NCBI GenBank assembly: GCA_964242145.1
Contig: CAXTCD010000002.1
Coordinates: 3,770 to 67,769, forward strand
From: an uncultured Rhizobacter sp.
Lineage (GTDB): Bacteria; Pseudomonadota; Gammaproteobacteria; Burkholderiales; Burkholderiaceae_C
Reading direction: 5' to 3'
Length of the DNA: 64,000 nt
Shown here: piece by piece, positions 29,445 through 43,432 of the stretch
How positions within the stretch are numbered: the stretch's first letter is position 1
How the letters are laid out: each line of letters begins with the position of its first letter
The notes under the pieces: model-generated
Database searches by the model: none
What the model was told of the DNA's origin: nothing
The model's input: only the letters and a program-made list of their open reading frames with translations
Position numbers and translations under genes: made by a program

Positions 29445-32495
<3,051 letters not shown>

Positions 32496-32539: not shown

Positions 32540-33142
32540 TCAGCCCCAGCGCGCTGCAGCGGGAAGCGTGGTTTGCAAGGCGTAACCCGATTCCGCCATC
32601 TGCGCGATCACTGTGTCAACGGCCTGCAGTGGCGTCAGCCGCGTGGTGTCGAGCCGCAACGCCGGTTGCTGCGGTGGCTCGTAGCGGGAGTCGATGCCGG
32701 TGAAGCCAACGATCTCCTTGCGCCGCGCTCGCTGATAAAGACCTTTCGGGTCGCGCTGCTCGCAGACGGTCAGCGGCGCATCGACGAACACCTCCATGAA
32801 GTCGTCCGGCGCGAAGCGCGCTTTCGCCGCGTCGCGTTCGGAGGCGAACGGCGAGATCAGCGCAACGATCACGATCAGGCCGGCATCGGTCATCAGCCGG
32901 GCGATCTCGGTCACGCGGCGCACGTTCTCGATGCGGTCGGCATCGGTGAAGCCAAGGCCGCGGTTGATGCCTTGGCGAAGCTCGTCGCCATCGAGCACGA
33001 AGGTGCGCAAGCCTTTGTCATGCAGGCGTTGCTCCAGCAAGACCGCGATCGTCGACTTGCCGGCGCCGGACAAGCCGGTCAGGTAAATCACACCGCCCTT
33101 GTGCCCATTCAGGGCCTCGCGCTGTTGCCTGATGATTCGCAT
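32540..33142 (-). CDS. cysC: Adenylyl-sulfate (APS) kinase
   Basis: YLTGLSGAGKST P-loop, LDGDELR, LGFTDADRIENVRRV, ALISPF, RDPKGLY and FTGIDSRYEPP; start at 33142. Confidence 0.95.
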   Translation of the reverse strand: MRIIRQQREALNGHKGGVIYLTGLSGAGKSTIAVLLEQRLHDKGLRTFVLDGDELRQGINRGLGFTDADRIENVRRVTEIARLMTDAGLIVIVALISPFASERDAAKARFAPDDFMEVFVDAPLTVCEQRDPKGLYQRARRKEIVGFTGIDSRYEPPQQPALRLDTTRLTPLQAVDTVIAQMAESGYALQTTLPAAARWG

Positions 33143-33380
33143 GTGAGTCGCTCCGATGACAAACGAAAACCCTGTAGGCAGCGCGGGCCCGCTCACGAGA
33201 CACTGCGCCCCATGCAAGATAACAGGATAGTGACACGGCAGATGAGACGCGCAAGCAAACTCCACCCGGCCCGTCGGGGCTCAGTAGGCAAGCCCCCGAA
33301 GCCGCTGTCAAATGCAGAAAGCATCGAAGCGTCTGCATGGCGCACGTCTGCAGCATGCGCGTATCCGTCGTGTGCCGCCA

Positions 33381-33416
33381 TTGACAGCGGGCCGGCCTGC
33401 CGAGAACGATAAGGCA
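33381..33416 (+). promoter_or_regulatory. Putative sigma70 promoter giving a leaderless sulfotransferase mRNA
   Basis: TTGACA at 33381, 18-bp spacer, AACGAT at 33405; the predicted +1 falls on the ATG at 33416. Confidence 0.4.
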
Positions 33417-34318
33417 TGCTGGAAGATGCCCGTGCGCCATATGCCATCCTGGCTCATCACCGGTCGGGGTCTAACTTCCTGAACGACCTGCTTCAGGCGC
33501 ACCCGCAGCTGGAATGCATCAACGAGCCGATGTCGATGCACACCCCCCACTTCCGCGATTGCGACCTGGTGCCGTGGCGGCGCGAAGACTTCGACCGGCG
33601 TTGGCTGCATGCCTCGCTCGTGCCGCATGACGGCCTGCGCGATTTCCTGTTCGACTTCAAAGACTATCTGCTGCAGTCGCACCGCGGCCGCATCGTCGGC
33701 TTCAAGGAGACGGTGCTGTTCGGCAAGCTGGAATGGTTGCGCGAATTTTTGCCACCGCTGAAGGTCATCTTCCTGAAGCGCGACATCCGCGCGGTGGTGT
33801 CGTCGATCTTGCGCAGCCACCTGACCGAGCTGTGGAACTACTCGAAGCTGGTGCCTGCGGCCTATCAACGCCTCTTTCCGGCGCATCACGCGCAGCGTCA
33901 AGTCGACCTCGAAACCGGCCTCGCGCTCCCATGGCATACACGAAACCCGAGCGGCGACGACAAGGTGCGTGCTGCCGCACTGGCGGCGATGAGTGTGGTG
34001 GTGCGTTATGAGCTTGCGCGGCGCGAGCTTCGGCATTTCGAGCACCGCATCTTGAGCCTCGAAGACATCGTGCAAAAGCCCGAGGTGTGCCTGAAGGTGA
34101 TCACCGATTTCCTGAACGTCGACAGCGACGACGCGCCGCTGCGCTTTCTGCATGGCCGGCATGTCACCAGCCGCGGCGGGCTCTTCTCCTCGTTCCGCTC
34201 CCCCGAAGACACGCAGCACGCCTGGTCGTGGCATTTGAGCGCCGCGCAATTGCGCGCGATCGACGCGGTAACCGCTGCGGTGACCCATGCCACCCAGGCC
34301 CGGCCCCCTGATGGATGA
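33416..34318 (+). CDS. PAPS-dependent sulfotransferase
   Basis: 5'-PSB-like HHRSGSNFL, LECINEP, VGFKET and 3'-PB-like FLKRDIRAVVSS (R-x7-S). Confidence 0.82.
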   Translation: MLEDARAPYAILAHHRSGSNFLNDLLQAHPQLECINEPMSMHTPHFRDCDLVPWRREDFDRRWLHASLVPHDGLRDFLFDFKDYLLQSHRGRIVGFKETVLFGKLEWLREFLPPLKVIFLKRDIRAVVSSILRSHLTELWNYSKLVPAAYQRLFPAHHAQRQVDLETGLALPWHTRNPSGDDKVRAAALAAMSVVVRYELARRELRHFEHRILSLEDIVQKPEVCLKVITDFLNVDSDDAPLRFLHGRHVTSRGGLFSSFRSPEDTQHAWSWHLSAAQLRAIDAVTAAVTHATQARPPDG

Positions 34319-34988
34319 CGCGTTGATTCGGCATTACATCGAAAATGCCGTGGCCTTTGTGCCAGCCGCCCGTGGCGCCCGCCCGCTGCGCATAGCGACC
34401 ACGCTCGTCACCTGCGAGCTGGCCGTGGCCTTGTTGAATGCCATGCGCCATCCAGCGGAGCCGGCCGCAAGCTATGCGCACATCAACACGCACAATCCGC
34501 AAAGCCCGCTTCGCTATGAACCGAAATCCCAACGCTGGACTTGCGAGGCTGACCGGGCGCAGCACCCGGTGTCCGGCATCAACTGGGCCGGCGCGGCGCG
34601 CATCGCGGCGCAGCTGGGTGCGCGCCTGCCGTTTGCGCGCGAATGGGAATGCTTTGCCTCGAACAATGCGCCCGAGAAGACCTACCCTTGGGGTGACGCG
34701 GAGCCCACGTTGCAGCTCGCCAACTTCGGCGAGCATTTCAGTGGCACCACCCCCGTCGGCCAGTTCCCTGCGTCGGACATGGGCCTGTACGACCTGGCCG
34801 GCAACTTGAGCGAATGGTGCCAGGACCACCCCCAGGCCGATGGCAAGCCGATGCTGCTGGAGCGGGTGGTCAAGGGCGGCGCCTGGAGCAAGGACGCGGC
34901 CTGGCTGCGCATCGGCGCCAACCGCGGCAAATGGGAACGCCTGGGCACGACCACCATCGGGCTGCGCCCGGTCTGGGAAGCACGTTGA
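34311..34988 (+). CDS. FGE/SUMF1-fold protein lacking the catalytic Cys pair
   Basis: HPVSGINWAGA, RLPFAREWE, YPWG, PVGQFP, GLYDLAGNLSEW and RVVKGGAW..TIGLR; start overlaps the sulfotransferase stop. Confidence 0.85.
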   Translation: MDDALIRHYIENAVAFVPAARGARPLRIATTLVTCELAVALLNAMRHPAEPAASYAHINTHNPQSPLRYEPKSQRWTCEADRAQHPVSGINWAGAARIAAQLGARLPFAREWECFASNNAPEKTYPWGDAEPTLQLANFGEHFSGTTPVGQFPASDMGLYDLAGNLSEWCQDHPQADGKPMLLERVVKGGAWSKDAAWLRIGANRGKWERLGTTTIGLRPVWEAR

Positions 34989-35043
34989 CTGCCGCCGTTG
35001 GACGTTCAAGCTCGAACCCTCTGATGTGCCCTGGAGCCCACCG

Positions 35044-35742
35044 ATGAAGCTTGCGATCTTCGATCTCGACGACACGCTGATCAACTTTGCCGCCACGCGC
35101 CAGGCCGCTTATCGCGGCATGGCCGATCTGCTGACGCGCGGCGGTGTGGACGCCCCGGCCTTTCTCGCGGCCTGCCCTGCGGTTGACCGCGCGCTCTTCG
35201 TGCTGTTCGAGACCGGGCAGATCAGCCGCGCCGACTACCGCCTGCGCCGCTTCAGCGAGCCGTTCGATGTGATTGGTGCGCCGCATCAACCGGCGTTGGT
35301 ACAGCGGCTCAACACTTTCTTCATGGACTGTGTCAATGACACGCCCTTGCTGTTCGATGATGCAAAACCGGTGTTACAGGCCTTGCGCGTGGCAGGCATT
35401 CGCACTGCGATCCTGACCAACGGCCCGTCCGATGGCCAGCGCCGCAAGCTGAAGGCCACCGGCCTGACGGATGCCGTCGATGAAGTGGTGATCGGCGAAG
35501 AGATCGGCTTTCGCAAACCCTCGCCGCAAGCTTTTCATTGGGTCATTGACCGCTTCTCGCTGGGCCGCTGTGACGCGTTGATGATCGGCGACTCGCCGGA
35601 ACTCGACCATGACGCCGCCCTCAGCGCGGGCCTTGGCGCGCGCCTGCTGGACCGCGAAGGCCACCACGCTGGCGGGGCACGCGAAGTGATCCAGTCGCTC
35701 GACGACGTGAGGGTCCAAGGGCTTATCCCCAAAATAACCTGA
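35044..35742 (+). CDS. HAD-superfamily phosphatase (YjjG/nucleotidase-like)
   Basis: IFDLDDTL (motif I), LTNG (II), RKP (III) and IGDSPELD (IV). Confidence 0.88.
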   Translation: MKLAIFDLDDTLINFAATRQAAYRGMADLLTRGGVDAPAFLAACPAVDRALFVLFETGQISRADYRLRRFSEPFDVIGAPHQPALVQRLNTFFMDCVNDTPLLFDDAKPVLQALRVAGIRTAILTNGPSDGQRRKLKATGLTDAVDEVVIGEEIGFRKPSPQAFHWVIDRFSLGRCDALMIGDSPELDHDAALSAGLGARLLDREGHHAGGAREVIQSLDDVRVQGLIPKIT

Positions 35743-36099
35743 TGACAACGCGGCGTAACAAGCGCAGCATGTCAAACCTTACAGGTTGCCAAGCCCTTGC
35801 GGGCCTCGTACCCTTTGTTTTACGGCAGAGGGGTTCACGATGGCGGACTGCGGCGGCTGATCTACCCAGCTCCAAGCGTCTCACGCTCGCATGTGCTCGT
35901 CTGGACCCAGCCGCACTTGAAAGCAGAACGCCAGGGTTGTGACGAGAAGGCGGCCGCGGGCAAGCGTCGGCGCGAGGGGCACGCGATGTGGATTCAATCG
36001 ATCAAGTGCGGGTGGCGCGCTGCGTCGCAGCGCTTTGTCGTTTCGCCTTCGCCCGCGTCACCGCCCGGTGCCGGGCCTGCGCTGGATCTCGAAGCCAGC

Positions 36100-37176
36100 A
36101 TGGCTTTATTGCCACCCGCCCCACCGCTTGAAGCCAACCCGGCGACTCGGGCTAACGCTCGACCCGGCGCCTGGCGGGCCGCGCTGCTGACCGGCAGCAG
36201 CCTGCTGGTGCTGGGTGTGCTGGCCATCGTCTACCTCTCGATCCACCGCGAGTCGGCTGCCACGCTTATCACCGACAAGCTGAGCATCGCGCTTTCCAGC
36301 ACGCCGCACGCCGCGCTGCTGCACATCGCCGCCGCCAAGGGCTATTTCACCGACGAGGGCCTGGATGTCTCGGTGATGCCGGTCACCCACGGCAAGGCCG
36401 CGCTCGATCTGCTGGCCCAGGGCAAGAGCGATCTGGCCTCCGCGGCCGAAGTGCCTTTCGTGATTGCGGTAATGAAGGGCGCGGACCTCGGCATCGCCGC
36501 GACCATGGCGAGCATCTCCACCGAGATGGCAGTGGTCGTGCGGCGTGACCGCAGCATCGGCCACCCGCGCGATCTGGCGCAAAAGCGCATCGGCGTGACC
36601 TTCGGTACCAGCGGCGAATACTTTCTGTGGGCCTTTCTGATCCGCAACAAGCTGACACCGGGTTCGATCACGCTGGTTGACCTGCCGCCCGACCAACTGG
36701 TGCTGGCGCTGACCGAAGGCCGCATCGATGCGGCTGCGATGTGGCAGCCCCTGGTGTCACAGGCGGAATCGACGCTCGGCAACCTCGGACAGGTATTCAC
36801 CGAACCGAGCGCCTACACGGTGATGCATGTGCTGGTGGGCCGCAACGAGTTCTTGCGCACCCATCGCATCGCAGTACAGAAGCTGCTGCGCGCGATGCTG
36901 AAGGCCGAAGAATTCAACCGCAATGATCCGCATCGCGCGATGGAGCTGACGGCGCAGCGGCTGAAGATCCCTGTGCAGAGCCTGCAGGCCGGCTGGGGCG
37001 AACTCGATCTCGCCGTCGACATGCAGCAGTCGCAGCTGATCACGCTGGAAGACGAGGCGCGTTGGGCGATCGCACGCGGCCATGCGCCGCCCGGGCCGCT
37101 GCCCAACTTCCTGCCCCACTTGTCGCTCGACGCACTGCTGGCGGTGCTGCCCGAGCGCGTGAGCGTGGTTCGCTAA
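36100..37176 (+). CDS. NrtA/SsuA/NMT1-type substrate-binding protein with N-terminal membrane anchor
   Basis: TM segment, then AKGYFTDEGLDV, GKAALD, DLAQKRIGVTFGTSGEYFL and IDAAAMWQP; start 36100 or 35986. Confidence 0.85.
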   Translation: MALLPPAPPLEANPATRANARPGAWRAALLTGSSLLVLGVLAIVYLSIHRESAATLITDKLSIALSSTPHAALLHIAAAKGYFTDEGLDVSVMPVTHGKAALDLLAQGKSDLASAAEVPFVIAVMKGADLGIAATMASISTEMAVVVRRDRSIGHPRDLAQKRIGVTFGTSGEYFLWAFLIRNKLTPGSITLVDLPPDQLVLALTEGRIDAAAMWQPLVSQAESTLGNLGQVFTEPSAYTVMHVLVGRNEFLRTHRIAVQKLLRAMLKAEEFNRNDPHRAMELTAQRLKIPVQSLQAGWGELDLAVDMQQSQLITLEDEARWAIARGHAPPGPLPNFLPHLSLDALLAVLPERVSVVR

Positions 37177-37203
37177 CGCCATCACGCCATGAAGCCATAA
37201 ACC

Positions 37204-38658
37204 ATGAAGATCGGAACAAAAGGACGCATCTCGGCCGTGCTGACCCTGGGCACGATCGCTTTCATCGCAGCGATGATCTGGTGGGCCAACACCGAAGTGG
37301 AAGACGCCGGGCGGCAACGCAAGCAGGCCAACGAAATCTCGCGCGGGCTCGATGAACTGCGGCTGGTGTCTTTTGAATACCTGCTCGGCCGCCAGGAGCG
37401 CGCCCGGATGCAGGCGCAAAGCGTCTCGACGCGGCTTGACCGGCTGATGGAGACCCCCATCTTCACCGGTGTGCGGCAACGCGAACTGATGAACTCGCTG
37501 CGCTCGCGCAGTGTGATCGCCCAGGGCATCTTCTCCGAACTGCTGTCCGACCCGCAGGCCAACTCCGGCCAGCGCAGCGATGACGAAACCCTGCGCCGCT
37601 TCGAAGCCCAGCTGTCGAGCCGGTTGCTGATCCTGCAGCAGGACAGCCTGGCCGACGCGTTCTCGTTGACCGATGTGTCGACCGATCGCATCCGCGAAGC
37701 GCAGCGACGCGTGGTCGTGGTCACCTTGGCGGGCCTGGCCTTGATTGCATTGATCGTGATCGGCGCGGGCCTCTTCATACATCGCGATGTGCTGGTGCCG
37801 ATTGCCCGGCTGGAGCAGGCCACCAACGAAGTGGCCGCGGGCAACTGGAGCTTCACGCTGAATGTTGCCAGCGACGACGAGATCGGCGAGATGTCGCGCA
37901 ATTTCGATGCGATGACACGGTCGCTGCGCGATTCTTTCGCGCAGATCGAGCGCAGCAACCAGGAGCTCGCCGCATTGAACCAGGAGATCGAATCTTTCAG
38001 CTATTCGGTGTCGCATGACCTGCGCGGCCCCTTGCGCAGCATGGATGGCTTCTCGCTCGCCCTGCTCGAAGACTACGGCGACAAGCTCGATGCCGAGGCG
38101 AAAGACTCGTTGTCGCGCATCCGCGCCGCCAGCCAGCGCATGGGCAGGCTGATCGACGAATTGCTCGGCCTGTCGCGCGTGACCCGTGCCGAGCTGACCC
38201 TGCGGCCGGTCAGCCTGAGTGCCGTGGCCACCGAAATCATCGAAGCTCTGGCCCAACAGCACCCGCACCGTTCAGTGCAATGGCAGATCGACGAGGGTCT
38301 GACGATCCAGGCCGACAAGCCGCTCATCCAGATCGCCATGCAGAACCTGCTGGAGAACGCCTGGAAGTTCACTGGCAAGACCGATGCACCGCTCATCCGT
38401 GTCGGCATGCTCGATCGCAACGGCCAGAAGGATTACTTTGTGGCTGACAACGGCGTCGGCTTCGACATGGCCTACGCCGATCGCTTGTTCGGCGCCTTCC
38501 AGCGCCTGCATCACGAGACCGACTTCCCCGGCACCGGCATCGGCCTGGCCATCGTGCAGCGCATCTTCCGGCGGCACGAGGGCTCGATCAGGGTCGAAGC
38601 ACAGCCGGGACTGGGCGCAACGTTTTATTTCAGGCTGAAAGAACCATCCCATGAATGA
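37204..38658 (+). CDS. Membrane sensor histidine kinase (2 TM, HAMP, HisKA, HATPase)
   Basis: FSYSVSHDLRGPL H-box, NLLENAWKFT N-box, DNGVGF, FGAFQRLH and GTGIGLAIV. Confidence 0.95.
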   Translation: MKIGTKGRISAVLTLGTIAFIAAMIWWANTEVEDAGRQRKQANEISRGLDELRLVSFEYLLGRQERARMQAQSVSTRLDRLMETPIFTGVRQRELMNSLRSRSVIAQGIFSELLSDPQANSGQRSDDETLRRFEAQLSSRLLILQQDSLADAFSLTDVSTDRIREAQRRVVVVTLAGLALIALIVIGAGLFIHRDVLVPIARLEQATNEVAAGNWSFTLNVASDDEIGEMSRNFDAMTRSLRDSFAQIERSNQELAALNQEIESFSYSVSHDLRGPLRSMDGFSLALLEDYGDKLDAEAKDSLSRIRAASQRMGRLIDELLGLSRVTRAELTLRPVSLSAVATEIIEALAQQHPHRSVQWQIDEGLTIQADKPLIQIAMQNLLENAWKFTGKTDAPLIRVGMLDRNGQKDYFVADNGVGFDMAYADRLFGAFQRLHHETDFPGTGIGLAIVQRIFRRHEGSIRVEAQPGLGATFYFRLKEPSHE

Positions 38659-39106
38659 TTCGAACAAGGTGATCCTGCTGGTCGAAGACAACCCGGACGA
38701 CGTCGCCCTCACACTGCGCGCCTTCAAGCGCAGCCACGTTAGCAATCCCATCACCGTGGCCCGTGACGGCATCGAAGCCCTCGACTTTCTGTTCGGCCGC
38801 GGCGTCCATGCCGACCGCGCCCATGCCTCGTTGCCGACGATCGTGATCCTCGACCTGAAGCTGCCCAAGCTCGATGGCCTGGGGGTGCTGAAGGCCTTGC
38901 GCGCCGATGAGCGCACCAAGCTGCTGCCGGTCGTGATCCTGACCTCGTCGAAGGAAGAACAAGACCTGATCTCCGGCTATACGCTCGGCGCGAACAGCTA
39001 TGTGCGCAAGCCGGTCGACTTCGCCGAGTTTGTCGAAGCGGTCAAGGTACTCGGCATCTATTGGCTGATGATGAACGAGTCTCCACCCGAACGAGCCACC
39101 TCGTGA
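38651..39106 (+). CDS. Single-domain response regulator (Rcp1-like)
   Basis: LLVEDNPDD, ILDLKLPKLDG, ILTSS and GANSYVRKPVDF. Confidence 0.94.
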   Translation: MNDSNKVILLVEDNPDDVALTLRAFKRSHVSNPITVARDGIEALDFLFGRGVHADRAHASLPTIVILDLKLPKLDGLGVLKALRADERTKLLPVVILTSSKEEQDLISGYTLGANSYVRKPVDFAEFVEAVKVLGIYWLMMNESPPERATS

Positions 39107-41055
39107 GTCGCTCTGTCAAAGTGCTGGTCGTCGAAGATTCCGACGACGACGCCAAACTGGCCATGCGCATGTTGAAGCGCGGTGGCTTCGACCCGACCTA
39201 TCAGCGCGTGCAAGACGTCGACGGCCTGATCGACGCGTTGAAGCACGACACCTGGGACGCGGTGCTGTCGGACTTCCGCATGCCCGGCTTCAACGGCGTT
39301 GATGCGCTGAAGATCTTCCGCGATACCGGGCTCGACATTCCTTTCATCTTCTTCTCCGGCACCATCGGCGAAGAGACCGCAGTCGAGGCGATGAAGGCGG
39401 GTGCGAGCGACTATGTGATGAAGCAGCACCTGGCGCGGCTGGCGCCGGTGCTGGAGCGCGAACTCGGCCAGGCATTGATTCGGGCCGAGCACCGGCAGGC
39501 GCAGATCGACCTCGAAGTCTCGCGCGACCGCTACCTCGACCTCTATGACTTCGCACCTGTCGGCTACCTGACGCTGACCGAGGAAGGCCTGATCTCGCAA
39601 CTCAACCTCACCGGTGCGGCCATGCTCGGCGAGGAGCGGCCTGCGTTGATGAACATGCCGTTCGCGCGCTTCGTGCCGCCCGAAGAGGCCGACCACTGGC
39701 GGCAGCACTTCCTGGTCGCGCTGTACCACGGCAATAACCTTCGTCTTGAGCTGACACTGAAGGGCGCACAGGGCCAGCGCTGCCCGGTGCAGCTGGATTG
39801 CACGCGAGTCACTTCTGAGAGCGCCGCCCCCATGGTGCGCGTGACACTGACCGACATCAGCGCACGCAAGGAGGCCGAGGCCAACCTGCGCGGCTTCGAG
39901 GCGCAGTTGCGCGAGGTGCAGAAGATGGAGTCGATCGGCACGCTGGCCGGCGGCATCGCGCACGACTTCAACAACATCCTCGGCGCGATCCTCGGCAACC
40001 TGTCGCTTGCACGCAATGAAGTCGGCACCGGCCACGCCGCGCTCGTCAACCTGGACGAAATCCAAAAAGCAAGCCTGCGCGCACGCAACCTCGTGCAGCA
40101 GATCCTCGCGTTCAGCCGCCGCGCACCGCAGCAGCTCGTGACACAGTCGTTGGGCCCGTTGCTGATGGAGACACGCCAGTTGCTGCGCGCCACGCTACCA
40201 GCCCGCGTCGGCTTCGAGGTCAACGATTCCGATGAACCGCTGTACGTGCATGCCGATGGCACCCAGGTCCAGCAGGTGCTGATGAATCTGTGCACCAACG
40301 CCTGGCATGCCCTGGCCGATGGCGTCGGGCACATCACGGTGGGCATCGATCACGTCCACATCGACGTCGGCAACGCCAAACGGCTGGGCGGCTTGCCACC
40401 CGGTCCGTATGCGCACCTGTGGGTGTCCGACGACGGCATTGGCATGGACACCGCGACACGCGAGCACATCTTCGAACCCTTCTTCACGACCAAGCCGGTC
40501 GGGCAAGGCACGGGCCTCGGGCTGTCGGTGGTGCACGGCATCATGACGGCGCACCATGGCGCGATCGATGTCGACAGTGAGCCCGGGAAAGGCAGCACCT
40601 TCCACCTGTACTTCCCGGTCGTTCCCCCTCCATCCGCCGGCGCTGCCGCGGCCAAGCCCGCCGCGCACGAAGCCGCTCGCGGCCAGGGCCAGCATGTGCT
40701 GTACATCGATGACGACGAGACGATGGTGGTGATGGTCGAGCGCATCCTGCAGCGCTCAGGCTACGAGGTCAGCGGCTATCAAGACGCACAGGCCGCGATG
40801 GCCGCGGTGCGTGAGCGCCCTACGGCCTTCGACCTGGTCGTCACCGACTTCAACATGCCCGAGCTGTCGGGCCTGGACGTGGCTCGCGAGCTGGCGCGCA
40901 TCCGCCCTCAGTTGCCCGTCGTCATCAGCTCCGGCTACATCACCGAAGAACTGCGCATCGAAGCGCGGCTGGCCGGTGTGCGCAGCCTGCTGGAGAAGCA
41001 GAACACCTTCGAAGAGCTGAGCCAATTGGTCGGGCGTACCTTGCTGCGCAGATAA
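39103..41055 (+). CDS. Hybrid REC-PAS-HisKA-HATPase-REC kinase
   Basis: N-terminal REC (VVEDSDDD, SDFRMP), PAS (YDFAPVGYLTL), GGIAHDFNNIL H-box, FFTTKPVGQGTGLGL and C-terminal REC (TDFNMP); GTG start overlaps the RR stop. Confidence 0.93.
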   Translation: MSRSVKVLVVEDSDDDAKLAMRMLKRGGFDPTYQRVQDVDGLIDALKHDTWDAVLSDFRMPGFNGVDALKIFRDTGLDIPFIFFSGTIGEETAVEAMKAGASDYVMKQHLARLAPVLERELGQALIRAEHRQAQIDLEVSRDRYLDLYDFAPVGYLTLTEEGLISQLNLTGAAMLGEERPALMNMPFARFVPPEEADHWRQHFLVALYHGNNLRLELTLKGAQGQRCPVQLDCTRVTSESAAPMVRVTLTDISARKEAEANLRGFEAQLREVQKMESIGTLAGGIAHDFNNILGAILGNLSLARNEVGTGHAALVNLDEIQKASLRARNLVQQILAFSRRAPQQLVTQSLGPLLMETRQLLRATLPARVGFEVNDSDEPLYVHADGTQVQQVLMNLCTNAWHALADGVGHITVGIDHVHIDVGNAKRLGGLPPGPYAHLWVSDDGIGMDTATREHIFEPFFTTKPVGQGTGLGLSVVHGIMTAHHGAIDVDSEPGKGSTFHLYFPVVPPPSAGAAAAKPAAHEAARGQGQHVLYIDDDETMVVMVERILQRSGYEVSGYQDAQAAMAAVRERPTAFDLVVTDFNMPELSGLDVARELARIRPQLPVVISSGYITEELRIEARLAGVRSLLEKQNTFEELSQLVGRTLLRR

Positions 41056-41503: not shown

Positions 41504-43432
41504 TCAAAGGTCCAGCGCGGGGCGGTGTTCTTCTTCGCTGACGAAGGTCCAGCGACCGAGGAATGACACCACGAAGGCGATCGCTGCGGTCAGCAGGATC
41601 ACCGACCAGGCCGACAACCACGCGTTGTCGTAAGCACCGAACAGGCTGGCGCGGAAGGCCCGCACCACCCAGGTGAACGGCAGCCACGGGTTCAGGTGGC
41701 GGAACAGCTCGCCGCTCAGCTCGATCGGCAACACGCCGCCGGCCGATGACAGCTGCACGATCAGCAGCAGCAGCGCGAGCGCCTTGCCCACATCGCCGAA
41801 AGTACGCGTCAACGCGAGAATGATCAGCAGGAAGGTCAGCGAGGCCAGTGTCAGCGTGAGCCAAAACGCCGGCAGGTCCGGCACGTGGACATGCAGCAGC
41901 GCCGTCAGCATCAACAACACGATGCTGGCTTGCGCGACGACCATCGCCGACAACAGCGCCAGCTTGCCCAGCAGCTGCGACAGCCGCGAAGCCTCGCGTG
42001 CCGATTCGGGCAGGCGGCGCAGATGGAACAGAAACGCCGTCATCACCGCGCCCATCCACAACGCAACCGGCACAAAGTTCGGGGTAAAACCAGTGCCGTT
42101 GTTGGGCACCGGAGCGAAGATCTCGACCACCGGCTCGACCGAATCGGCGAGGCCGCGCGCACTGCCTTCGAGCGACGGCACATCGTTCGGCAGCGACGAT
42201 TCGAGCAAGTCCAGGCCACCCGCCAATTGCGCTGCGCCCACATGCAGCTTCTCGACACCCATGCGCAGGTTCTGGGTGCCCTGGGCAAGCGATGTCGACG
42301 CATTGCCGAAGGCATCGAGCCTCGCGTCATCGGGCAGGCGCGCGGCCATCAGGTGCAGGCCGTCACCGAGTGCGGCCACGCCTTCGGTCAGCTTCAGCAC
42401 ACCGCCATGCAGCCGCACCGCGCCTTCGCCGAGGCGGATCTGCCCATTGCGTGCCTTTTGCAGCCCGTTGCTCAATTGCGCACCGCCCTCGGCCAGCGCG
42501 GAGGCGCCTTGCGAAATCTTGGTGCCGACGAAAAGGATGTCTTCGGTCTCGTCGTGCAGCTGCTGCGCGCCGTCGGTCAGGCGCTGCGCGCCCGCCTGAA
42601 GCTGCTCCAGGCCACGGCTCAGTTCGGCATGGCCTTCGGCCAATGCATGCGAGCCGCTGCGCAAGGCCTGCAGATCGGCCGTGGACGCGCGCCGCGCGTC
42701 CATCGTGCGCACGCCACCGGCCAGCTGCTTGAAGCCGCTGGTCAACGGGCCCGCGGCTTCATTGAGCTTGTGCGCGCCGTCATTCAGCGCGCGCGAGCCG
42801 TTGTCGGCTTGCGCGAGGCCGCGCACCAGGTCGTGCGAGCCGATGCGCAATTGCGCCACGCCATCTTTCAGGCTGCGCACGCTGCGCTGCGAGCCGGCGG
42901 CGCTGGTCAACACCAGCTCCCAGCGCTTCTCGTTCAGCGTTTCATTGACCTGGTGGCCCAGCTCTTCGGCAAAGCGGCGCGCCATGCCTGCGCCCACGTA
43001 GTTATTGCCTTCGGAGGTGTAGACGATCAGCCGGCCCGCGCCCGGCTGCAGGCCCGGCACGGCGTTGGCGCTGAAGTCGCGCGGGATGATCAACGCCATG
43101 ATCAGCCGGCCCTCACGCACCGCCTTGCGGGCCGATGGTTCGTCTTCGAACATCTGGAAGCCGAACAGGTGCCGCTGCTGCAGCGTGGCCGCCAGCTCGG
43201 TGCCGATGTGGGCCGACTGCCCGCGGTAATCGACGCCTTCATCGAGGTTGACGATGGCCGCCGGCAAGGCCGAGGTGCGCGAGGCCGGGTCCCAGACGCT
43301 GGAGAGGTAGATGAAGGCGTAAAGCGCCGGGATGATCAACACGCCCAGCACCGACATCCACAGCCGCGGGAAGCGCCGAAACATCGCCGCCTCGCTGCGG
43401 GCAATCGACCAGGCGTCGCGCAGCGTCTTCAT
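41504..43432 (-). CDS. YhgE/Pip-domain membrane protein
   Basis: YAFIYLSSVWDP, LPAAIVNLDEG, long heptad L.DGA.QL repeats and C-terminal TMs (PWLPFTWVVRAFR). Confidence 0.88.
   Translation of the reverse strand: MKTLRDAWSIARSEAAMFRRFPRLWMSVLGVLIIPALYAFIYLSSVWDPASRTSALPAAIVNLDEGVDYRGQSAHIGTELAATLQQRHLFGFQMFEDEPSARKAVREGRLIMALIIPRDFSANAVPGLQPGAGRLIVYTSEGNNYVGAGMARRFAEELGHQVNETLNEKRWELVLTSAAGSQRSVRSLKDGVAQLRIGSHDLVRGLAQADNGSRALNDGAHKLNEAAGPLTSGFKQLAGGVRTMDARRASTADLQALRSGSHALAEGHAELSRGLEQLQAGAQRLTDGAQQLHDETEDILFVGTKISQGASALAEGGAQLSNGLQKARNGQIRLGEGAVRLHGGVLKLTEGVAALGDGLHLMAARLPDDARLDAFGNASTSLAQGTQNLRMGVEKLHVGAAQLAGGLDLLESSLPNDVPSLEGSARGLADSVEPVVEIFAPVPNNGTGFTPNFVPVALWMGAVMTAFLFHLRRLPESAREASRLSQLLGKLALLSAMVVAQASIVLLMLTALLHVHVPDLPAFWLTLTLASLTFLLIILALTRTFGDVGKALALLLLIVQLSSAGGVLPIELSGELFRHLNPWLPFTWVVRAFRASLFGAYDNAWLSAWSVILLTAAIAFVVSFLGRWTFVSEEEHRPALDL

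Follow-up and report, generated by a model that had tools for sequence, protein, structure and literature searches.

The window analyzed here, a stretch of 64,000 nt from an uncultured Rhizobacter sp. (assembly GCA_964242145.1, contig CAXTCD010000002.1, positions 3,770 to 67,769 of the forward strand), contains eight neighboring genes that place a sulfation pathway beside a sensory module; positions below, unless given with a locus or contig name, are those of the window. On the sulfation side, cysC encodes an adenosine 5'-phosphosulfate (APS) kinase that makes 3'-phosphoadenosine 5'-phosphosulfate (PAPS) (32540–33265, minus strand; PF01583, E = 1.8e-60, and TIGR00455). It is followed on the plus strand by genes for a 300-aa PAPS-type sulfotransferase of the Sulfotransfer_3 family (ST; 33416–34318; PF13469, E = 3.7e-12), a protein of FGE-sulfatase fold (FGE; 34287–34988; PF03781, E = 1.4e-26), and a HAD phosphatase with a DxDxT motif (HAD; 35044–35742 within an open reading frame of 34840–35742; PF00702/PF13419). 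Beyond a control region composed of a dyad, a −35, and a −10 element (35769–35814, plus strand; from alignment with related loci), the sensor operon continues in the same direction with genes for a membrane-anchored orphan solute-binding protein of the TauA/SsuA family (SBP, NMT1/SsuA-type; 36100–37176 within an open reading frame of 35797–37176; PF09084, E = 2.1e-26), a HAMP-HisKA-HATPase histidine kinase with two transmembrane (TM) segments and a periplasmic four-helix-bundle sensor domain (HK; 37204–38658; Pfam and structure model), a stand-alone receiver protein (REC; 38651–39106; PF00072), and a hybrid kinase of REC-PAS-HisKA-HATPase-REC architecture (from a TTG at 39061 or a GTG at 39103 to 41055; Pfam and sequence). 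Pfam searches and hydropathy scans reproduced the domains, membrane segments, and overlaps of these genes as the initial annotation had described them from the DNA. As shown below, these genes form a single accessory cluster that is inherited together in Burkholderiales of the Sphaerotilaceae type (Rhizobacter, Ideonella, Piscinibacter, Methylibium, and Caldimonas), and the functional link between its sulfation genes and its sensor is very probably real.

The gene starts used here are inferred. Orthologues of HAD align only from Met-69 of the open reading frame onward, so the true start most likely lies at 35044 (MKLAIFDLDDTL). That of SBP most likely is the ATG at 36100; the TTG at 35797 was ruled out because this codon falls within the conserved promoter. 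HK and REC overlap by 8 nt, and the 4-nt overlap that had been proposed between REC and the hybrid kinase holds if the latter begins at GTG 39103, while TTG 39061 could also serve as its start. By hydropathy, SBP has one N-terminal membrane segment as its anchor (residues 28–46) and HK has two (residues 9–27 and 170–188), with none in ST, FGE, or HAD. No permease or ATPase of an ABC importer lies beside SBP in the window (Pfam), and a BPD_transp or ABC_tran gene is absent from this position in all related loci as well, where the kinase gene follows SBP instead. The sole transporter-like neighbor, an ABC2_membrane_3 gene on the opposite strand (41504–43432), was not found in related loci. A DNA-binding or Hpt domain is likewise missing from all four signaling proteins (Pfam).

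Among 61 related genomes searched, seven of the same genus besides the window genome encode an SBP orthologue (52–58% identity), and ST is present in the identical 8 of the 61 genomes and in no others. ST-FGE-HAD adjoins SBP-HK-REC-hybrid in all seven same-genus relatives, in four of which cysC comes after the hybrid kinase gene on the same strand, and the genes flanking the cluster vary among these seven loci. A scan with an ST alignment over one genome per species gave 22 betaproteobacterial loci from Rhizobacter, Ideonella, Piscinibacter, Methylibium rhizosphaerae, Caldimonas mangrovi, and metagenome-assembled genomes (MAGs), with SBP-HK-REC-hybrid alongside in 22/22 where the contig reaches. 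These loci were selected by ST and are unusable for asking whether the sensor implies the cassette. A metagenome scan seeded with SBP yielded 80 loci on short contigs, 52 of which were informative: 33 carry the ST-FGE-HAD cassette (type 1) and 6 a different sulfotransferase cassette (type 2, described below), so that ~75% (39/52) have a sulfotransferase cassette, while 4/52 have neither cassette on either side and 9/52 have none upstream with the downstream side incompletely covered. Of 401 genomes sampled evenly across the family, 17 encode the orthologous module, and ten of these have an adjacent sulfotransferase cassette (8 of type 1, 2 of type 2); one further genome carries a type-2 sulfotransferase 2.9 Mb away and another a different Sulfotransfer_3 gene on a separate contig. 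A six-frame search with PF13469 had missed the 412-aa sulfotransferase of type 2 in genome G363, and the search was redone with that protein as query. Co-occurrence of the two gene sets across genomes, which the initial annotation had put forward as a check, was thus found in the related genomes, the ST-selected loci, and the SBP-seeded loci.

The order of the genes varies while their company is kept. In the common layout of 54 unique type-1 loci, the two operons stand back to back, with ST, FGE, and HAD reading one way and SBP, HK, REC, the hybrid kinase, and in part of the loci cysC reading the other way from an intergenic region of ~75–250 nt. FGE comes after ST in all loci examined, and of the 36 type-1 loci whose sequence extends far enough to judge, 23 have cysC after the hybrid kinase. 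Two type-1 loci are co-directional. An independent metagenome contig, L047, has nucleoside hydrolase, ST, FGE, HAD, SBP, HK, REC, hybrid kinase, and cysC in one direction with short gaps; the window shares with it the ST-FGE-HAD-SBP junction and has its cysC at the opposite end, inverted and divergent from ST. The layout of the window would be a rearranged copy that can be derived from the common layout through two inversions; its cysC/ST junction is unique among the loci seen, and the source assembly (5.0 Mb in 320 contigs) is fragmented. The PAPS supply gene and the sulfation triad have kept their place beside the sensor despite two or more inversions and one swap of the cassette. In the flanks of the related loci, no conserved exporter, Hpt, or DNA-binding regulator was found; the genes that recur there encode a nucleoside hydrolase, a LysR regulator, a short-chain dehydrogenase/reductase (SDR), and extra PAS kinases.

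Given an SBP start at 36100, the spacer between HAD and SBP measures 357 nt. A dyad of the type CTG-N10-CAG (ATGTCAAACCTTACAG, 35769–35784) begins 27 nt past the HAD stop codon and abuts the −35 element of a predicted sensor promoter (TTGCCA, 35786–35791), which is followed after 17 nt by a −10 element (TACCCT, 35809–35814). Ahead of their SBP genes, L047 (co-directional) and L059–L061, L064, and L071 (divergent) have a block that can be aligned base by base with 35769–35814, and the sensor operon therefore keeps its own promoter. From these alignments, the spacer is predicted to be the conserved promoter region of the sensor operon together with a lux-box-like operator. Two independent insertions, which had been considered as another explanation of the linkage in view of the spacer, are rejected by the co-inheritance across genera, the several gene orders, and the homology of this promoter. 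That the leader from the promoter to ATG 36100 contains a riboswitch or another structured element was also considered and rejected (no Rfam match; folding z = +0.64 compared to shuffled sequences). At 36017–36033, 65 nt before the SBP start, there is a GC-rich hairpin with a T-rich run; terminator-like hits of this kind number 7 against 5.8 expected.

Quorum-sensing boxes recognized by LuxR-type regulators include the lux, cep, and tra boxes, and the dyad of the sensor operon resembles them in abutting the −35 element. The same dyad also lies by the only gene for an Autoind_bind/GerE (LuxR-type) regulator in the window genome (contig C27, L144:2278–2991), where a near-identical copy (CCTGTAAGAGCTGACAG, L144:3026–3041) is located 34 nt past the luxR stop codon. 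An orthologue of this regulator is encoded by 22 of 26 genomes of the genus, and all eight cluster-bearing Rhizobacter genomes have the dyad beside luxR; five of the eight, the window genome included, have it ahead of the SBP operon, and it was seen only in the Rhizobacter-type clade. These matches suggest that the LuxR-type regulator drives the sensor operon and, where the layout is back to back, probably both operons. A search of the assembly for LuxI, which had no positive control, was negative. Following the dyad at luxR, a small open reading frame of ~74 codons (L144:3125–3349) encodes a double-glycine-like leader (…LLGQISGG) and two DSPNGSW repeats, with an HlyD-family gene next to it, so that the locus as a whole (L144:2278–4665) looks like a LuxR-controlled secreted-peptide locus. 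Further copies of the dyad were seen at C41:20206–20224, where it precedes genes for DUF2157/DUF4401/GDYXXLXY membrane proteins and has a receiver gene at its other flank, and at C83:20509–20527, before a gene for an 862-aa regulator with Trans_reg_C and STAND-NTPase domains; both could be members of the same regulon. Outside the luxR locus, the sites found genome-wide lie before unrelated genes, and the regulon is uninformative.

To follow the sensor through the family, we built a tree from concatenated SBP, HK, and REC sequences of 76 loci, for which a root was not established. Type-1 loci are distributed over the entire tree, and three other groups are nested among them. In one nested clade (support 100), the hybrid kinase is replaced as the fourth gene by a REC-PAS-GAF-GGDEF-EAL gene, which encodes a c-di-GMP enzyme; in L084 of this clade, neither the 8 kb upstream of the module nor the 6 kb downstream contains a sulfotransferase gene. 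In a second one (support 100), the module is flanked by unrelated genes. The third, the type-2 clade (support 100), has the Ideonella type-1 clade as its sister (support 98). The type-2 cassette encodes a small-domain methyltransferase, a 412-aa Sulfotransfer_3 protein (ST412) for which pairwise comparison with the 300-aa ST detects no similarity, and an arginase-fold protein. This cassette lies divergently upstream of the sensor in L115 and L138 and convergently downstream in L118, L119, L123, and L126, and L141 has it in the same direction after cysC (SBP-HK-REC-hybrid-cysC-methyltransferase-ST412-arginase-fold). At least five state changes are required on the tree. In the simplest reading, the group would have inherited the sulfation link from its ancestor, with two or three later losses and a single exchange of the cassette for one with another sulfotransferase; the direction of these events can only be inferred because of the missing root.

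Sequence and predicted fold agree in placing SBP with TauA and SsuA, in line with the family assigned initially. Its structure model (pLDDT 86, and >90 from residue 59) matches best to TauA (6ssy) and to SsuA of E. coli and Xanthomonas (3ksx, 3e4r, and 2x26) in Foldseek searches of the PDB (TM 0.72–0.86 on target), with ThiY, Thi5, and NrtA/CmpA ranking below. Profile searches are topped by a Bordetella protein of unknown function, with TauA and SsuA next, and the NCBIfam cut-offs of SsuA_fam and taurine_ABC_bnd are missed (106.8 versus 163.5 bits for TIGR01728; 59.5 versus 304 for TIGR01729). Since the curated SsuA score is missed and transporter partners are absent, SBP should not be filed as an SsuA/TauA transporter component. 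TauA contacts the sulfonate of its ligand through Gln30 and the backbone of Gly61, Gly79, and Thr132, and the amine through Glu106, Thr132, and Asp205 (PMC6906117). In a remote HMMER alignment (~20% identity), Gly98 and a G-T-S-G-E-Y loop of SBP correspond to Gly61 and Thr132 of TauA, and its hinge Glu142 to Glu106; all of these are conserved in all groups. By the same alignment, SBP differs at the positions of Gln30 (Thr-Pro-His), Gly79, and Asp205 (His243). The last of these positions is occupied by His in 44 of 48 type-1 loci, by Tyr in 10/10 type-2 loci and in the ST-less clade, and by Phe, Ile, or Val in the GGDEF-EAL clade, and Thr68 is confined to type-1 loci. This pattern fits a constant anion site combined with a variable specificity pocket, whose candidate residues would change with the cassette. 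Four of the 48 type-1 loci have altered pocket candidates (His70 to Asp, Ser171 to Asn, and His243 to Gln), apparently the sub-clade L026/L029/L046/L110/L114 (Rhizobacter OV335, Root1238, and SG703 group), whose type-1 loci have neither an adjacent cysC nor the dyad. Tandem paralogues of NMT1-type SBPs (30–35% identity) were seen on contig C120 of the window genome (L017:2658–7727) and in genome G001 (L016), adjoining genes for a 2-TM HAMP-PAS-GGDEF protein and REC-PAS-kinases. From these paralogues beside HAMP-PAS-GGDEF proteins in the same genome and genus, the SBP family appears to serve repeatedly as a signaling front end.

HK lies directly after SBP and in the same orientation in every orthologous locus that extends beyond the SBP gene. 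A model of its residues 1–250 (pLDDT 84) is all-helical, with the ~140-residue periplasmic domain forming a four-helix bundle before TM2 and HAMP. The best PDB match of this model is the sensor-TM-HAMP fragment of NarQ (5iji; TM 0.72/0.79, rmsd 3.0 Å), and the N-terminal domain of LytS from the XylFII-LytS complex is also among the matches. Downstream, conservation within the cluster is highest in the stand-alone REC, with 71–88% identity among related loci compared to 47–66% for SBP, which would suit a hub or an output that acts via protein contacts. Pfam finds neither an Hpt domain nor a terminal output regulator in the cluster, so that a His-Asp-His-Asp phosphorelay is incomplete there; the six Hpt matches elsewhere in the window genome are all within large proteins. 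Among NCBIfam profiles, the HK core matches LvrA (E = 3.9e-64) and the hybrid kinase LvrB (E = 1.5e-63), both under the cut-off.

On the enzymatic side, ST scores above the PF13469 cut-off (47.4 bits versus 27), and its motifs HHRSGSN and RD-x6-S, which we take to be of the 5'-phosphosulfate-binding (5'-PSB) and 3'-phosphate-binding (3'-PB) type, are invariant in an alignment of eight orthologues. Its profile match to tyrosylprotein sulfotransferases is weak (E ~1e-3). The ST of the window has a 16-residue insertion at about residues 162–177 (QVDLETGLALPWHTRN) that is absent from seven aligned orthologues of the genus. FGE has no signal peptide and no Cys pair in its GGAWS... segment, and HAD is nearest to YjjG-type nucleotidases, under the cut-off (TIGR02254, 109.9 versus 159.9 bits). 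An inosine-uridine-type nucleoside hydrolase recurs by the cluster (L047:4559–5533, L026:3990–4931, and eight further type-1 loci), in L047 directly upstream of ST and in the same direction. The triad was also seen without the sensor outside Proteobacteria (L039–L044). Four Streptomyces loci keep ST-FGE-HAD, with genes for a tyrosinase and for a protein with a cyclase-like domain at the flanks. In Clostridia, L044 keeps ST, FGE, and, further downstream, HAD, and L043 stops right after the FGE gene; the triad of a gut Clostridia MAG is accompanied by CysD, CysN/C, and an AAA_28 gene, and the SBP-kinase module is absent. The recurring nucleoside hydrolase, the YjjG likeness of HAD, and the kinase-like AAA_28 gene with the Clostridia cassette together hint that a nucleoside, or disposal of the by-product 3'-phosphoadenosine 5'-phosphate (PAP), is part of the cassette chemistry. 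To the left of cysC in the window (30320–32495), a gene for a FAD-dependent aromatic hydroxylase and a partly overlapping, convergent gene for an AraC-type regulator were seen; a hydroxylase with 74% identity to that of the window is also found near the cluster in L035, so this is probably a conserved neighborhood.

We propose that the membrane-tethered SBP would bind a small organic sulfo-anion, either a sulfonate or a sulfate ester, of the class made by the neighboring enzymes, and that this ligand may be self-made or released by neighbors. Loaded SBP would then dock on the NarQ-like four-helix periplasmic domain of HK in the manner of TorT on TorS or XylFII on LytS, and phosphate would be handed on both to the single-domain REC and to the hybrid kinase at its N-terminal REC. 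The output would lie outside the cluster and be non-transcriptional within it, through protein–protein action of REC or through an unlinked Hpt protein and regulator. In the Rhizobacter clade, a LuxR-type regulator at the CTG-N10-CAG dyad would control the sensor operon transcriptionally and, where the two are back to back, the sulfation operon too. That SBP binds an organic anion with a sulfonate or sulfate group, related to the chemistry of the cassette, is in our judgment rather probable.

Several observations weigh against this proposal. ST, FGE, HAD, and CysC have no export signals in a sequence scan, and no exporter recurs in the flanks of related loci. The link between pocket residues and cassettes is confounded by phylogeny, with each type being one or few clades, and depends on the ~20%-identity alignment to TauA. 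The dyad was not detected between ST and SBP in three of the eight cluster-bearing Rhizobacter genomes, and the LuxR link is built from sequence resemblance and position. Most loci come from one bacterial family, so that the counts given above overstate the number of independent events. Finally, the initial annotation had considered that the signaling module might generally occur without sulfation genes. As a rule it does not, but a minority behaves this way: five of the 17 module-bearing genomes (90–100% complete) have no detectable sulfotransferase of either kind, and two or three clades on the tree appear to have lost the sulfation linkage. The sensor is therefore not dependent on a self-made product.

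In a stricter version of the proposal, along the lines of the initial annotation, the cell's own sulfated product would exit the cell and bind SBP in an autoinducer-like loop, which in Rhizobacter would be nested under the LuxR-type regulator. Such a loop would account for enzymes that add sulfo groups standing next to a receptor family that binds them, for the recurrence of this pairing with a second, unrelated sulfotransferase cassette, for the shift of receptor residues at the cassette swap, and for maker and sensor lying under one control region. LuxR solos act as eavesdroppers in quorum sensing, and sensor-only genomes could be eavesdroppers of the same kind. Yet the enzymes are all cytoplasmic, the flanks offer no conserved exporter, and the sensor persists in genomes without such a sulfotransferase, and we regard the strict loop as a tentative possibility. 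Reversing the direction, SBP might instead respond to a cue from outside or to the acceptor before its sulfation, such as a compound derived from plants or soil, and the relay would switch on or tune a sulfation that detoxifies or inactivates this compound. Two-component systems beside divergent operons usually control those operons, and the compact shared intergenic region and the sensors found without the enzymes would suit such an arrangement. It would nevertheless leave the sulfonate-type receptor without a reason, a DNA-binding regulator is not conserved in or beside the cluster, and the promoter has a LuxR-type site rather than a response-regulator site, all of which makes this direction unlikely.

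A TauA/SsuA-like receptor and the presence of cysC in the sensor operon of most loci would also be compatible with a gate on sulfur status, where SBP reports the periplasmic supply of sulfate, sulfonates, or sulfate esters and thereby limits the use of PAPS for sulfation to times of ample sulfur. A general sulfur sensor, however, would not need pocket residues that change with the cassette and would be expected to be more widespread than an accessory cluster, which renders this reading quite improbable. It is very improbable that the two modules are unrelated neighbors, adjacent by chance and traveling together by descent: the 357-nt spacer and the genomes with the module alone could be taken in this sense, but the adjacency has outlasted inversions, differing flanking genes, and replacement of the cassette, cysC sits inside the sensor operon, and L047 has all genes in a single co-directional string.

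The proposed sensing of a sulfo-anion by SBP and HK has precedents in TorT-TorS for sensing of trimethylamine N-oxide (TMAO) in E. coli, LuxP-LuxQ for autoinducer 2 (AI-2) in Vibrio, and XylFII-LytS for xylose in Clostridium. The cluster shares with them a transporter-less binding protein beside a membrane histidine kinase with presumed docking on its periplasmic domain, and differs in its anchored receptor of TauA/SsuA type, its NarQ-like kinase sensor, its single-domain REC and REC-headed hybrid kinase without an Hpt or DNA-binding partner, and its genetic tie to sulfotransferase cassettes. TauA and SsuA of sulfonate importers are the best matches of SBP by sequence and fold, with the putative anion-binding loops and hinge Glu conserved in the remote alignment, whereas SBP has no TauBC/SsuBC partner, has an N-terminal anchor, and falls under the NCBIfam SsuA cut-off. 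Branched pathways without DNA-binding output are known from Leptospira LvrA/LvrB and from pairs of a kinase and a single-domain receiver of the Cph1-Rcp1 type, but the cluster differs from LvrA/LvrB in its SBP and four-helix-bundle input, and the sub-cut-off scores make this an architectural resemblance only. The rax system of Xanthomonas comprises the RaxST sulfotransferase, the RaxX peptide, RaxPQ for PAPS synthesis, and the RaxH/RaxR two-component system (PMC6637879). It is loosely similar in that a plant-associated bacterium there combines a two-component system with PAPS supply and with a Sulfotransfer_3-type enzyme that depends on PAPS; unlike it, the cluster has no precursor peptide, type I secretion genes, or DNA-binding regulator and has FGE-fold and HAD partners. 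A RaxX-like peptide system was accordingly rejected, as a Tyr-containing precursor and type I secretion genes are absent from the cluster and its conserved flanks.

Our searches of the literature on the triad, on SsuA-type SBP-kinase pairs, and on sulfotransferases with two-component systems found no published account of the cluster. SBP-dependent kinases and bacterial sulfotransferases are each known, but their conserved genetic union does not appear to have been described in the literature searched, still less a union that recurs with two unrelated sulfotransferase cassettes while receptor residues change with the cassette. At its most far-reaching, the cluster might embody a new bacterial signal, a PAPS-derived sulfated metabolite that is made by ST, FGE-fold protein, and HAD, or by methyltransferase, ST412, and arginase-fold protein in the sister clade, and is sensed outside the cell by a TauA-like receptor and kinase as a LuxR-switched second tier of communication on which sensor-only species eavesdrop; taken as a whole, we consider this doubtful. 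Cultured carriers make experiments practical (Rhizobacter sp. Root1221, Root1238, OV335, and SG703; Methylibium rhizosphaerae; Caldimonas mangrovi; and Ideonella sp. YS5), and the cluster is thereby a testable route to what orphan bacterial PAPS sulfotransferases make, to the ligands of orphan TauA/SsuA-like receptors, and to whether sulfated small molecules signal among bacteria of the soil and rhizosphere.

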